Of a stretch of 43,382 nt of DNA, positions 1-37,902 are shown in pieces. Numbering within the stretch: position 1 is the stretch's first letter; every line of letters begins with the position of its first letter. The translations under genes were made by a program, and so were the position numbers. The notes beneath the pieces were generated by a model. That model did no database searches. It was not told the origin of the DNA and was given only the letters and a program-made list of their open reading frames with translations. This DNA is from a virus (taxonomy: Duplodnaviria > Caudoviricetes): the IMG/VR virus record IMGVR_UViG_3300018080_005156, positions 1 to 43,382 of that record; one strand, 5' to 3'.

Positions 1-2081
1 ACACAGGGTTGATCGATATAACCCTCCATATAATTACTTGTAGTATTTCGACTTCCTACCGTAAACAAGTTACCAGCATGATAATTCGGTCCAGCATGCG
101 TACCAGAATTTTCAAACGTACCATCATCAATATAAAGCTTAGCACTATCATCAGCTGCATTATAAGTACCAACAACTAAATGCCAGTTACCATCATTTAA
201 TGTCGTACTACCATCAAGAGTTAAAAATGTTCCACCATCTCGCCTTAAATCCCAATATGCTGTATTTTGATATGCCCCAAGATCCCATCCATAGCCGGTA
301 TAATAATAATTACATATAATACCATCAAACACACCACTTGCCGTAGTTTTCACCCAAGCAGCAACAGAGAAAGATTCGTTAAGAAATTCATAATCTGTAT
401 CAATTCCACCAAGATAACCATTTCCGGAAGAAGTAAATTGATAGCAATCATCTAATTTACCAGTTTGTCCTTGAGTAACAGTACCACTTTTTACCAAATC
501 GTGATTACCAATTTCATCAATAGCATTGCCACTCGACTCATCTAAAGTCCATAAACCAAATAAACCCTCTTGCAATTCATGCTCTACTGAGGCACTCCCG
601 CTAATATAGCTAATCTCTTCATACTGCAAAGTATCGGGTCTAGGAGATGGACTTACTAAAAAGGTATCCACATTCGGCTCCGGGGTCCACTCGTCTTGTT
701 TCCAAGACCAAAGCCTAGCGTAATACATAGTATTTTCACCAGGTACATTGGGAACATAAAATATTAGATCTTTAAAATCATTACTATCACTAGAAGCTAA
801 TATAGATATTGGACTCAACCAACTATGAGGAAGAACAGTATCAATATTAAATCTAAACGAATCAGCTTCAGGGTCAAATTGCAAAGCAGTTTTTATATAT
901 CCAGAATCTAAATCCCATTCTTCTACTTCAAAAACTCCCAAAGTATCAGGATGAAATATTGTAGGAGAATCAGCTATTGCAGTATCCCGTACAGTAGAAA
1001 GCCAACCATACCCGGATTTATGAACACACATCGTCCAATAAACAGGAACCCCTTGTAATCCATCATAATAGAAAAGAGTATCATGATATAAAGCGGTATC
1101 CTCAACTGGAAATGCAAATTGAATTACGCCATTACTGGGGGAGGTAGAATAACCATCATATTTTCTAACAATTACAATACTATCTATACTAGGATCATAA
1201 CCCAAAGTTTGCATGCGCATTGTATCATAACAACACACATCTGCAGAAAATGGATAAGATATTCCATCATCACCATGTGCTTTAAGGTTTACAACTTCGA
1301 CATCAGTCAACGCTTGTTGTGCGATATATACTTCATCAATAAACCCATTAAAATACCGGTCATTATTCCAACGCCCACCAACAGTAAACCATATGTACGA
1401 ACCGTATTCTACATTGGTGCAATAATCAGTATCTTCATTAATACCGTCAACAAACACTTTAACTTCATCAGTTGCAGTATTATAAGTACCAGCTATATGA
1501 TGCCAATTGCCATCATTAATTGTTGTAGTAGAATAAGTAACAGCACTAGATGCAGAACTACGACATGCCCAACTAACACGTCCATCTGAATACAACCCTA
1601 AATCATATCCGTAACCAGTTTTATAATTAGAAATTATTCCGTCATAAGATCCACTTGCTGTAGTTTTTACCCAACAAGCCACCGTAAATGATCCACCAAA
1701 TTTAAAATTATTCTCATTCCAACCTAAACTACCAGAATTAGGAAAATAATAACAAGAATCAACTTTACCAGTAGTATCTTGTATAATACCACTTCCCTGA
1801 CCATTTAAAGTTAAATCAACCGAACCGGCAGAATTTATAGCACTTCCAGATGCTTCTTCAAGTGGATAATAGGCAGCTATATTATCAAGCAATGTCGAAT
1901 TATCACCACACACAGTAATACCATCTACAGAAAACAAATTAGTCTGTTCGGGAGCAGATACCTTAGCGGTAGTATTTTCATCCTTAAAATAAAAAACTTT
2001 GCCTTGTGCATCTCGCATCATTACTTGCGAATACGACACCAAAGATGATAATAAAAATAATATACTTAAAAGCTTTCTCAT
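1..2081 (-). CDS. Signal-peptide-bearing protein with two LamG/concanavalin-like domains (putative tail/receptor-binding protein); runs off the window edge
   Basis: Not in the ORF track because no stop falls in the window. ATG at 2081 overlaps the upstream TGA (ATGA). Translates MRKLLSILFLLSSLVSYSQ...; LamG motifs FTVACWVKT, INDGNWHHIAGTY, FNGFIDEV and a second copy ending YMEGYIDQ. Frame checked at start, middle and end. Confidence 0.85.
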   Translation of the reverse strand, partial: MRKLLSILFLLSSLVSYSQVMMRDAQGKVFYFKDENTTAKVSAPEQTNLFSVDGITVCGDNSTLLDNIAAYYPLEEASGSAINSAGSVDLTLNGQGSGIIQDTTGKVDSCYYFPNSGSLGWNENNFKFGGSFTVACWVKTTASGSYDGIISNYKTGYGYDLGLYSDGRVSWACRSSASSAVTYSTTTINDGNWHHIAGTYNTATDEVKVFVDGINEDTDYCTNVEYGSYIWFTVGGRWNNDRYFNGFIDEVYIAQQALTDVEVVNLKAHGDDGISYPFSADVCCYDTMRMQTLGYDPSIDSIVIVRKYDGYSTSPSNGVIQFAFPVEDTALYHDTLFYYDGLQGVPVYWTMCVHKSGYGWLSTVRDTAIADSPTIFHPDTLGVFEVEEWDLDSGYIKTALQFDPEADSFRFNIDTVLPHSWLSPISILASSDSNDFKDLIFYVPNVPGENTMYYARLWSWKQDEWTPEPNVDTFLVSPSPRPDTLQYEEISYISGSASVEHELQEGLFGLWTLDESSGNAIDEIGNHDLVKSGTVTQGQTGKLDDCYQFTSSGNGYLGGIDTDYEFLNESFSVAAWVKTTASGVFDGIICNYYYTGYGWDLGAYQNTAYWDLRRDGGTFLTLDGSTTLNDGNWHLVVGTYNAADDSAKLYIDDGTFENSGTHAGPNYHAGNLFTVGSRNTTSNYMEGYIDQPC

Positions 2082-35498: not shown

Positions 35499-36014
35499 AT
35501 GTTGGCTCATCATTTACTCGTTAGTTTGGGCATAGTAGGCATATTGTTACTCTATCAATATGCTCAAAAGCCCGGTCATCTGCTACATTGGTGGCGTAAG
35601 GTATTCACCAAATACCTACCGAAGTGGTGTGAATTCCTCCGTGATTATATTCGGCACTTTTCAGAAAGATTGTCGGATATTGAGACATTTAAAGTCGACG
35701 ACCTATGGCTTGGCGCTCATACCAGGGCAGGAGCTATACTGTATATTATTATTTGGTATTTATTAATAATACCAATCATAATGATAGGTGGCTTGGTCCT
35801 GTTCACAGCGATATGGTTAACGCTATCTTTTATTTACAGCTTACGTAAAATAATAGCATTGTGTCCATTTTGCCAAGCGCCATGGGTTGCAATACTGATT
35901 TATTTATGTACATCAGAATTTGAACCAATAAGTATGATCATATTTGTTGGATTTACGTTCAATTTGATGTTAATAATCACATCTGTACCACGATTAAAAA
36001 AAGAATTCAAATGA
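35499..36014 (+). CDS. Integral membrane protein
   Basis: Four to five hydrophobic segments, CPFC motif. Confidence 0.7.
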   Translation: MLAHHLLVSLGIVGILLLYQYAQKPGHLLHWWRKVFTKYLPKWCEFLRDYIRHFSERLSDIETFKVDDLWLGAHTRAGAILYIIIWYLLIIPIIMIGGLVLFTAIWLTLSFIYSLRKIIALCPFCQAPWVAILIYLCTSEFEPISMIIFVGFTFNLMLIITSVPRLKKEFK

Positions 36015-36634
36015 AAAAAATAATTCGAATCCTATTGCTGTTTTCATTAGCAATATTTGGGTTAAATCTTTATTCATGTGAGAAAGACACAACTCAATTG
36101 CCAACAGAGGGGGAAGTTTCACTTGCGGCAGATGTATCCATATGGGATATTGACACAGTAAAAATCTACGACTTGTACACGGGAAGTCAACTCAAATTGG
36201 AATCACCAGATAGCACCTTGTTAATCTTGGAGCTATACAAAGACAACGAAATAGCCGAGGCTTTGGTAACAATCACTGGGAAATACAAACGATACTATTT
36301 ACTGACACATAAAATAGATTCAGCAAATTATGGAGGTTATATACAAGCTCAGTATCGCGCATTTGATAACGGTGAGAGAATATGCAAAGCCTTTATATTA
36401 TTTTATTGGTCTCAATATATACCAGATATGCCCAGGATAAGCTTCTTTGCTGATAGCCAGAATGCAATATATTCTTGGAGTGGCGATTTATTACAATCTA
36501 GGTCGTCCACCCGGTTAAAATCGTTAATGTCAAAAACAATAAATTATGGATCCTACTTCAAAACTACGGACGATGACCAAAATAATTGGTTATCAGGACA
36601 AGAGGCAAAGCTTTGTACTAAACTTCGGCTTTAA
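36011..36634 (+). CDS. Putative lipoprotein
   Basis: MKKIIRILLLFSLAIFGLNLYS-C lipobox followed by EKD (Bacteroidota-type acidic export signal). Confidence 0.7.
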   Translation: MKKIIRILLLFSLAIFGLNLYSCEKDTTQLPTEGEVSLAADVSIWDIDTVKIYDLYTGSQLKLESPDSTLLILELYKDNEIAEALVTITGKYKRYYLLTHKIDSANYGGYIQAQYRAFDNGERICKAFILFYWSQYIPDMPRISFFADSQNAIYSWSGDLLQSRSSTRLKSLMSKTINYGSYFKTTDDDQNNWLSGQEAKLCTKLRL

Positions 36635-36805
36635 AGACGAAAGTTCATTCGGTAAACCTATTGAATTTCTTTTGGTAACAAAAGAGGAACTGCATAAGCT
36701 TTTCAATGTCGTACCTGCTGAGAATGGTGGTTACGTGAGCGATCATGCAACAAAATCTATTTCTTGTCACGAGAATAAGGACATTGACTTTGCTACATAA
36801 GAAAT

Positions 36806-36864
36806 TCTTACGTTAGATATATATCGTGCTGTATTGGACCGGGGTTTGACTCCCCGCAGCTCCA
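36806..36864 (+). ncRNA. ssrA: tmRNA acceptor piece (3' half) of a permuted two-piece tmRNA
   Basis: GAC-CGGGG-TTTGACT-CCCCG T-arm, acceptor strand CAGCTCC plus discriminator A; upstream segments complementary to the coding piece. Confidence 0.88.
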
Positions 36865-37101
36865 CATGAAGGTAGTGATGTTGGGTCGTGCCGCGTTGTG
36901 CCCATTGAAACATGCTACTGAAGGGGTTTAGGCCAGAGGCGGCCGTGACTGCCTAGCCCCGTTTTAACATATCTGCCAATTGGTGTAGAGTAACGCCTGG
37001 TTATGCTTAGCCTTGACGATCCATCGGATGTACTGGTGAGGATAGCATAACAAAAGATGCATATGTCGCAGGTTGCAAGACTATGCCCGTTACTTGTTAT
37101 T

Positions 37102-37175
37102 GGTCCCATCGTCTAATGGCTAGGACGCTTTACTCTTGCGAGGAAGAGACAGTGGTTCGAATCCGCTTGGGACTA
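37102..37175 (+). tRNA. tRNA-like gene (Glu-type body, irregular anticodon arm; identity undetermined)
   Basis: Acceptor GGTCCCA/TGGGACT, D-arm GTCT-AATGGCTA-GGAC, T-arm AGTGG-TTCGAAT-CCGCT; anticodon region CTTTACTCTTGCGAGGAAG is 2 nt too long; no encoded CCA. Confidence 0.75.
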
Positions 37176-37181
37176 CTTTAT

Positions 37182-37306
37182 GGGGCTGATGGAATTTTGA
37201 CAGTATAGAATTCGGTATATATTGATGATGCGTAAGATGTGCTAATAACCGGCGATAATGGTTATAACAGGGCCTTAGGCCGCTCATTAGATTGGGCCGC
37301 TTAAGG
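37182..37306 (+). ncRNA. ssrA: tmRNA coding piece (5' half plus tag reading frame GDNGYNRALGRSLDWAA*)
   Basis: 5' GGGGCTGA...GAC, AATAAC-C-GGC resume context at 37251, tag ending AA-TAA at 37304, hairpin CCTTAGGC..GCTCA/TGGGC..GCTTAAGG over the stop codon. Confidence 0.9.
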
Positions 37307-37401
37307 AGGAAGATCAGGTCATGGGGGAACGGGGGACGCTTGACGACCCCTAGGCCCCCGGGCCGCTATCCTTGACACTAGTAATTCAAAATAGTAATGT
37401 C

Positions 37402-37902
37402 ATGAGAACTTTATACAGGACTTACAAACTGTTTCGTCGGGTATCACCAGACTTCAAGGGAAGGTTTAACACTTTCCTTGCTTATTTATGGTGCGAATAT
37501 TTTGTGCCCAATGTAGATGTATTCCTATTACCGGTTCGTGAAAACCTGCTAATTGAAGATATAGCCTACATTATAGTCAAAAAAGACAAAATTCGACGTG
37601 AGGTCGAGATACTCGATGTGTTTGTGTTGCCTATTTTTCGTCTACGTGGTTATGCCACAGATGGTATAAGAATGGTTATGCAAGCGTATGAAACAGAGGG
37701 ATTTTTGCGTGTAAATGTGATTATAAGGGAAGATGATACAAGAGCCCGTTCTCTGTTCTACAATTTGGGCTTTGAAATGGATCAAGCCCGTACCAACAAA
37801 CTCTTGTTAGAGGATATTGGTACTGAAAAACCTAACGAAGGTCATTGGTCCGGTAGTATTAGTTTCCCACAAAAAATTGCTTATTACACTCTATTAAACT
37901 AA
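37402..37902 (+). CDS. GNAT-family acetyltransferase
   Basis: ILDVFVLPIFRLRGYAT (motif A) and DTRARSLFYNLGFE (motif B); likely ATG 37402. Confidence 0.8.
   Translation: MRTLYRTYKLFRRVSPDFKGRFNTFLAYLWCEYFVPNVDVFLLPVRENLLIEDIAYIIVKKDKIRREVEILDVFVLPIFRLRGYATDGIRMVMQAYETEGFLRVNVIIREDDTRARSLFYNLGFEMDQARTNKLLLEDIGTEKPNEGHWSGSISFPQKIAYYTLLN

Follow-up and report, generated by a model that had tools for sequence, protein, structure and literature searches.

Two-piece (circularly permuted) genes for transfer-messenger RNA (tmRNA) were reportedly described by Keiler, Shapiro and Williams in 2000. Such genes are found in Alpha- and Betaproteobacteria and in cyanobacteria (PMC11915505, PMC3978253; Rfam RF04321 and RF01849-51), and a tandem duplication was proposed as the origin of permuted tmRNA genes (PMC3978253). 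The 2025 tmRNA database counts 97,179 sequences, 11,946 of them permuted and 79 from bacteriophages (PMC11915505). The paper also notes a permuted gene of 1,152 bp whose spacer contains a repetitive element, and a nominally archaeal record, GCA-2688965__sp002688965.2, in which an intact, high-scoring tRNA-Ala lies in the intervening sequence (IVS, the spacer), there called "a unique feature" (PMC11915505). In full-text literature searches, no other report of a tRNA within a tmRNA spacer came up, nor any paper on the tmRNA spacers of crAss-like phages. Here we describe a permuted tmRNA gene with a tRNA-shaped element in its IVS, carried by a crAss-like phage (IMG/VR virus record IMGVR_UViG_3300018080_005156); the window analysed is this whole record, which is linear, 43,382 nt long and an estimated 42% complete.

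With a probability of roughly 60%, we read the locus as a permuted tmRNA gene of a crAss-like phage, whose 317-nt IVS, including a Glu/Gln-like pseudo-tRNA, is likely removed from one precursor by host ribonuclease P (RNase P) and tRNA 3'-end enzymes. Bacterial two-piece tmRNAs resemble it in the order acceptor-IVS-coding, in the G3.U70 acceptor stem, in helix P2 and in the tag frame. Unlike them, the window has a crAss-like phage as carrier, an IVS of 317 nt and a CCA encoded only to its first C, and the pseudoknot PK1 seems to be replaced by an extended P2. The tRNA-Ala case is similar in that a tRNA-type gene lies wholly inside a permuted IVS; compared with it by its published description, the window differs in a non-canonical anticodon arm, in identity elements that disagree and in an extra 236 nt (PMC11915505). 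Such genes are already known, through a single published case and many unpublished examples in phage metagenomes, and the window is notable for the length of the spacer, the pseudo-tRNA and its invisibility to standard annotation.

The two-piece tmRNA gene and its spacer

The features of the locus are as follows.

about 36803..36864, plus strand: tmRNA acceptor piece, with the P2 3' strands, T-arm, acceptor 3' strand and discriminator; of CCA, only the first C is encoded (36865)
36806-36812 (TCTTACG), 36817-36826 (ATATATATCG) and 36829-36834 (CTGTAT), plus strand: P2 3' strands in the acceptor piece
36840-36856, 36857-36863 and 36864, plus strand: T-arm, acceptor 3' strand CAGCTCC and discriminator A
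36865..37181, plus strand: IVS, 317 nt, between the acceptor and coding pieces
36866..37101, plus strand: X, the orphan part of the IVS, 236 nt, 48.7% GC (genome, 37.9%)
36923..36961, plus strand: strongest hairpin of X, about 10 pairs, -18.7 kcal/mol with flanks, followed by GTTTT
37102..37175, plus strand: tRNA-shaped element, called by ARAGORN (37102-37176, "Ala tgc") and by Rfam (tRNA, 44.9 bits; cut-off 29)
37176..37181, plus strand: 6-nt linker CTTTAT, from the tRNA-like element to the coding piece
37182..37366, plus strand: tmRNA coding piece, with the 5' acceptor strand GGGGCTG at 37182-37188; the 3' limit given is provisional
37203-37208 (GTATAG), 37213-37222 (CGGTATATAT) and 37231-37237 (CGTAAGA), plus strand: P2 5' strands in the coding piece
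37251..37304, plus strand: tag frame, with resume codon GGC, peptide GDNGYNRALGRSLDWAA and stop TAA at 37302-37304 (ARAGORN, relaxed threshold)

Judged from its pairings and layout, the locus is a real, and probably functional, permuted tmRNA gene. GGGGCTG and CAGCTCC pair at all seven positions, G37184 with T36861 making the G3.U70 pair, and the T-arm, acceptor 3' strand and discriminator stand 5' of the 5' acceptor strand on the same strand, which is the permuted order. Three P2 helices (36806-36812/37231-37237, 36817-36826/37213-37222 and 36829-36834/37203-37208) were found as inverted repeats, and the same three form in the minimum-energy fold of 36803-37370 (z -2.15), a fold equalled by 2 of 100 shuffles. 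The resume codon GGC and a tag starting with G-N are common to the window and its crAss-like relatives, whose tags, as given by ARAGORN, are GNNVNFFDYTLKVA, GNNTIQINNYVGLMSA and GNTSYVTDYTRLAA. Moreover, the acceptor stems of the relatives differ by compensatory changes while keeping G3.U70, a pattern that supports tmRNA function in the family, and four of them (L057, L058, L060 and L125) likewise encode only the first C of CCA. The original prediction had put the spacer at 317 nt, with a cloverleaf ending 6 nt before the coding piece; the former is borne out by the acceptor-strand pairing and the RF04321 alignment, the latter by the ARAGORN and Rfam calls relative to G37182.

A G/C-rich element at 37323-37359 (GGGGG-AAC-GGGGG...CCCC-TAGG-CCCCC), 3' of the tag frame, could fold either into a nested hairpin or into an H-type pseudoknot; in this reduced tmRNA it may be the sole pseudoknot.

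Spacers were also compared in related phages, a check that the original prediction had called for. Among 22 records related through the large terminase (TerL), four score above the cut-off with RF04321; the acceptor-piece pattern was not found in another 32 relative records. The IVS is about 19-20 nt in L057 and L058/L059, 71 nt in L060, and 174 nt in L125, a crAss-like relative found separately (major head protein 58% identical). The spacers thus compared (about 19-174 nt) have unrelated contents, and none of those in L057, L058/L059, L060 and L125 holds a nested tRNA. A permuted spacer can apparently accommodate over 300 nt, an entire tRNA-shaped fold included, and in a single phage lineage its length ranges between about 19 and 317 nt. 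In L125, a repeat of about 32 nt that forms a hairpin occurs twice in the spacer, at about 735-850 (minus strand).

tRNA-shaped elements were found in these relatives on the other side of the coding piece. Rfam tRNA matches lie 34-37 nt 3' of the tag stop at L057:1718-1783 (42.3 bits) and L060:1833-1904 (36.7 bits), both with short anticodon loops of 5-6 nt and neither called by ARAGORN, and a tRNA-like mini-element lies 3' of the coding piece at L125:539-586 (minus strand). It is possible that such elements are 3'-end processing signals. The window has no tRNA-shaped element 3' of its coding piece, and no further tRNA-like punctuation was found in it, either by Rfam at E up to 1 or by a T-arm plus acceptor scan.

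The processing that we propose would start from a single precursor, in which 36857-36863 would pair with 37182-37188 and the acceptor and P2 helices would close off the spacer in a loop. G37182 and G37102 would each be preceded by an RNase P cut, while an RNase Z-type cut or exonucleolytic trimming would act after A36864 and A37175. A CCA-adding enzyme would complete both 3' ends, a step proposed because the encoded part of CCA is its first C alone. Processing would yield four RNAs, namely the acceptor piece, X (as a fragment of about 237 nt), the pseudo-tRNA and the coding piece. In this scheme the nested element is most likely a decayed tRNA-Glu-type passenger that keeps the "top half" read by processing enzymes and does not decode, and it probably goes back to a tandem duplication within a phage tRNA array, the event that gave rise to the permuted gene. 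It would add two cutting sites, which would not be needed, since the relatives manage without one. The earlier suggestion that the nested tRNA releases both tmRNA pieces is unsupported: L057 and L058/L059, whose spacers measure about 19-20 nt and lack a nested tRNA, show that in this family the tmRNA's own tRNA-like domain is enough.

Several points weigh against this reading. The RF04321 score (34.9 bits) is below the cut-off of 47, and default ARAGORN calls no tmRNA here, though both shortfalls are due to the 317-nt insert. The T-loop reads TTTGACT, with a T where the relatives have C. X has a GC content like that of the flanking RNA genes, which is odd for junk, and within it lie a terminator-like hairpin and a weak sigma-70-like site (TTAACA-16-TAGAGT, 36964-36991). 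Both single-nucleotide polymorphisms (SNPs) that separate X from other copies of the phage turn a predicted G.U pair into G-C. The SNPs are clumped along 5 kb, the neighbouring GNAT gene having 0 in 501 nt, so that a zero count in the RNA parts is weak evidence. Finally, the identity rules applied to the nested element come from E. coli work, and ARAGORN names an anticodon for it.

As to visibility, RF04321 (tmRNA_permuted) aligns over its full length (model positions 1-213) to 36815-37304 with the spacer as one insert, and the E-value is 3.5e-5 when 1 kb is searched and 0.0015 for the whole window. The short-IVS relatives reach 51-60 bits with the same model. Relaxed ARAGORN finds the true 5' domain with the tag GDNGYNRALGRSLDWAA, but pairs it with a false, nearer 3' domain. 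As standard annotation misses genes like this one, tmRNA catalogues are probably truncated at long spacers, and phage tmRNAs are probably under-counted, PMC11915505 giving only 79 bacteriophage sequences.

The orphan part of the spacer

X is most likely a dispensable spacer. The original prediction credited the spacer with structured RNAs of its own, and the three hairpins it named are all present in the window; nonetheless, X as a whole folds at the level of shuffled sequences (z 0.07; 101 of 200 dinucleotide shuffles at least as good), its best local 55-nt hairpin is ordinary (a fraction of 0.495 of 200 shuffles at least as stable), and its reverse complement is also no better than shuffles (z 0.95). 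X belongs to no Rfam family, a permissive Rfam search giving only chance-level microRNA matches, and neither of its two minus-strand open reading frames (ORFs; 64 and 48 aa) matches a Pfam family. X is not repeated in the window and resembles nothing in the phages collection or in about 430 fetched loci. Its relatives are limited to copies of the same phage, namely metagenome contig L317 and contigs from DNA runs.

L317 is 98.9% identical to the window over 5,036 nt (56 differences). Relative to it, the tmRNA pieces and the tRNA-like element together show 0 SNPs in 328 nt, whereas X shows 2, at 36984 and 37037. These are the only two in the locus, the window having T at both positions and the other copies C. 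Contigs of three DNA runs, of which two belong to other studies, show both differences as well; the X SNPs are one haplotype difference, of which C is the common state.

A minor possibility is that X is a functional small RNA of the phage, whose exact ends would come from the flanking tRNA-processing cuts, the spacer being an expression cassette. Its GC content of 48.7%, in the top 1.2% of 236-nt windows, is near that of the tmRNA pieces and the tRNA-like element (52-53%) and unlike that of the genome, both SNPs strengthen predicted pairs, and putative processing sites lie on both sides of it. However, the fold of X exceeds shuffles neither globally nor locally, no Rfam family or relative beyond same-phage copies was found, the sequence evolves at about the background rate (2 SNPs against 2.6 expected), and the two SNPs amount to a single haplotype difference common to all other copies. 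A more specific form of the idea, in which the tRNA-like domain and a decoding-dead pseudo-tRNA would serve as RNase Z/RNase P "bookends" freeing a GC-rich, precisely ended small RNA of about 237 nt, and in which the pseudo-tRNA would be kept for that role alone, is unlikely.

X was also considered as a decayed older coding piece, a reading that found no support. A tag-like frame (ANWCRVTPGYA*) is called in it by relaxed ARAGORN, but so are frames in 22 of 200 dinucleotide shuffles of X. Local alignment of X with five coding pieces was at shuffle level, a weak test in that true coding pieces barely match each other.

The nested tRNA-shaped element and comparable loci

The element lies wholly within the IVS, on the same strand as the tmRNA pieces. 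It had been described as a full cloverleaf, which is true of the acceptor, D and T arms, all canonical, but not of the anticodon arm, which is non-canonical in Rfam, in ARAGORN and in the minimum-energy fold. The acceptor stem has 7 pairs (among them G1.U72 and U3-A70), followed by discriminator A at 37175 with no encoded CCA; the T arm has the loop TTCGAAT, and the D arm, with GG, is Glu/Gln-like. Posterior probabilities in the Rfam alignment are high in these three arms and 0.3-0.5 in the anticodon arm. For the latter, the Rfam alignment is possible only with a 2-nt bulge, and the ARAGORN drawing has an A/A mismatch in a 6-pair stem. In the minimum-energy fold, a 5-nt linker precedes a CUCUU/AAGAG stem that closes a 6-nt loop, and the variable region is 2 nt. 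A canonical 5-pair stem with a 7-nt loop is absent. The body of the element aligns with tRNA-Glu and tRNA-Gln of other phages, with which it shares invariant TCGTCTA, GG and AGGAC. The only 7-nt loop available, on the other hand, reads UGC (Ala), and pair 3-70 is U-A instead of G3:U70. By the rules derived from E. coli, alanyl-tRNA synthetase (AlaRS) needs G3:U70, while the glutamyl and glutaminyl enzymes (GluRS and GlnRS) recognise the anticodon. Because body, acceptor and anticodon disagree, the element is probably a decayed Glu/Gln-type tRNA that no longer decodes. Compared with the nested tRNA-Glu of another phage contig (L362, below), it seems to have lost the 5' strand of the anticodon stem and to have gained about 8 nt on the 3' side.

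It is quite unlikely that the element is instead a working decoding tRNA carried as cargo, the tRNA-Ala(UGC) of ARAGORN. In favour of this are the calls by both ARAGORN and Rfam, a drawable 7-nt loop (CUUGCGA) with U33 and a purine at 37, the absence of SNPs in the element, complete tRNAs in the same slot in six other phage contigs, and the fact that the sole published nested case is a tRNA-Ala (PMC11915505). That loop, however, requires a bulged or mismatched stem, whereas the minimum-energy fold gives a 6-nt loop; the 3-70 pair is not the G.U expected of an AlaRS substrate, and a Glu/Gln-type body is at odds with the anticodon. In addition, L057 and L060 show that Rfam-scored tRNA shapes with 5-6-nt loops, not called by ARAGORN, can stand right after a tmRNA.

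The spacers of other permuted phage tmRNAs were surveyed in IMG/VR. A first sample (2 of 64 parts) gave nine distinct permuted candidates, seven of them corroborated by ARAGORN or Rfam, with spacers of 6, 18, 19, 21, 53, 63, 69, 71 and 174 nt. A census of 47 of the 64 parts then looked for a tRNA T-arm (position 70 not T, excluding the tmRNA's own) located 3-22 nt before the tmRNA 5' end. It gave 96 distinct matches: 12 permuted genes with a nested tRNA-type element (IVS 79-137 nt), 23 one-piece genes abutted by a tRNA, and 61 that were left unclassified, with no partner in the flank. Among the 12, ARAGORN finds a complete nested tRNA in six (Tyr in three, Asn in two and Glu in one), and the other six are T-loop-bearing stem-loops of a beta-type family; the loci are L349, L351, L362, L364, L371 and L417, and L238, L368, L372, L376, L385 and L386. 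In the complete cases the tRNA fills the spacer, with 1-3 nt before and 3-4 nt after it. The exception is L362, which resembles the window in its order of acceptor piece, 61 nt, tRNA-Glu(ttc), 3-4 nt and coding piece; its record (66% complete) has no major head protein, portal or TerL match. As in the window, the nested elements of the census end close to the coding piece (3-6 nt before it), but the window has 236 nt before the element and a decayed anticodon arm. Its spacer is the longest in this analysis, the next being 174 and 137 nt.

The earlier picture of the spacer as a cargo slot agrees with these comparisons: spacer content does vary, from the unrelated sequences of about 19-20, 71 and 174 nt in the relatives to the six complete tRNAs and six stem-loops in other phages, but structured RNAs in the window's spacer are at chance level.

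It is common for one-piece phage tmRNAs to have a tRNA 2-11 nt upstream (L205, Thr; L224, Glu; L249, Ser; L318/L319, Gln). As in the window, a tRNA, here too with a Glu/Gln-type body, abuts the tmRNA 5' end, so that a single RNase P cut would serve both; unlike the window, these genes are not permuted. By analogy, their layout suggests an ancestor from which tandem duplication could give the order seen in the window. A tRNA a few nucleotides before the coding piece fits such an origin, and the nested tRNA would then be a fossil of the duplication.

tRNA-like processing signals are known from the t-elements of plant mitochondria and the mascRNA of MALAT1. These share with the window a tRNA-shaped fold that has no decoding role and stands where an RNA end is needed; the element described here differs in being known from sequence alone, and in lying before the coding piece, not after it as in L057, L060 and L125. 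With acceptor, D and T arms kept and the anticodon arm decayed, it offers a test case for whether phages keep tRNA "top halves" purely as processing signals.

In a cyano-type permuted tmRNA (RF01851, 127.5 bits) on the contig L127, which is the same contig as L128 and L201, the 3' end of the acceptor piece is duplicated identically 740 nt upstream (901-925 and 1641-1665). This resembles either the duplication of an attachment site or the outcome of an insertion into the gene.

Two further explanations concern the locus as a whole. It is decidedly unlikely that it yields two transcripts, with upstream transcription stopping at the hairpin 36923-36961 and a promoter in 36962-37101 driving the element and the coding piece. 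In its favour, the hairpin (about 10 pairs) is followed by GTTTT and then directly by the TTAACA-16-TAGAGT site, and a pattern search with the hairpin found only a near-identical, terminator-like one 3' of an ORF in the unrelated contig L320. However, the hairpin is followed by GTTTTAAC, which has fewer than the 5 T in 8 used in the terminator scan, and the scan does not list it; the 3 promoter-like sites in the region compare with 2.4 expected by chance. In Bacteroidota, the probable host group, the sigma-70 consensus does not apply, and a Bacteroidota-type motif has two matches in the window, none near the locus. The short spacers of the relatives, moreover, leave no room for a promoter. That an insertion disrupted a once-short spacer and the tmRNA no longer works is very unlikely: although standard tools miss the gene or score it below threshold and no longer spacer was found in this analysis, the tRNA-like-domain and P2 pairings, G3.U70, tag frame and stop codon are all intact, one-piece tmRNAs tolerate about 300 nt between their two acceptor strands, the locus is identical in copies from other samples apart from the two X SNPs, and a contig from an RNA library (metatranscriptome run X8; 168 nt, 3 differences) covers 37225-37392, a weak hint for which DNA carry-over is possible.

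The phage genome and the setting of the locus

In a PHROGs search of the window proteins, the major head protein matched phrog_11589 (E 5e-121), the portal phrog_6547 (E 5e-164) and the large terminase phrog_6681 (E 6e-146). By tblastn, the head protein matched 139 phage records, the best being uncultured crAss-like phages (60-65% identity) and the remainder including phages of Bacteroides, Flavobacterium and Cellulophaga. On the basis of these head-protein matches the window is a partial genome of a crAss-like phage, and the host is probably a member of Bacteroidota. The minus strand holds the structural genes up to about 29 kb, and the tmRNA locus lies within the plus-strand block after them. 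Its neighbours are as follows.

36546..36800, plus strand: upstream ORF, 84 aa, no family match; its stop TAA (36798-36800) is about 3 nt 5' of the acceptor piece
37402..37902, plus strand: GNAT acetyltransferase ORF, 3' of the tmRNA; open from TTG 37372, with ATG 37402 as the likely start

The stop of the upstream ORF, acceptor piece, spacer, coding piece and GNAT ORF thus follow one another on a single strand with gaps of about 3 to 35 nt. Further 5', ORF 36011-36634 (207 aa) overlaps ORF 36546-36800 by 89 nt in a different frame; neither has a family match, and the 207-aa ORF has no relative in IMG/VR.

Relatives of the locus itself were sought in several collections. Neither blastn nor megablast found any in the phages collection, and in IMG/VR there were no relatives of the flanking proteins and no match to the exact acceptor pattern. 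Beyond the same phage (L317), a metagenome scan gave only an unrelated one-piece tmRNA (L318, L319), and the window ORFs were unmatched in the tmRNA loci of the relatives. An exact 24-mer of the acceptor piece is absent from the GTDB representative genomes; a looser acceptor pattern gave 15 records there from a mixture of Clostridia, Saccharibacteria, Chloroflexi/Chloroflexota, Paenibacillus, Cohnella and others, with 0 from Bacteroidota, and is uninformative on the host.

Contigs of other organisms in DNA run X3 match window positions 36834-36865 (32 nt) with 1-2 differences and diverge on both sides; at the sequence level, the tRNA-like 3' half of the phage gene is nearly identical to that of some cellular or other-phage tmRNA. 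Because these organisms share 36834-36865, a 53-nt contig of run X8 that ends at 36865/6 is unassignable to the phage. The sequence next to that contig we take to be Illumina adapter.

Some minor observations were made in the relatives. In L060, which belongs to the complete crAss-like relative G005, a RAGATH-9 RNA (RF03146, 120.2 bits; cut-off 75.2) lies at 372-523, about 1 kb 5' of the permuted tmRNA. The TerL match in L007, L026, L031, L045, L052 and L056 either spans 2.3-3.0 kb for 380-650 residues or is split, which suggests that introns, inteins or homing-endonuclease genes are inserted in TerL. Similarly, cr118_1 and cr50_1 each have a head protein annotated as two parts, separated in cr50_1 by an HNH endonuclease.

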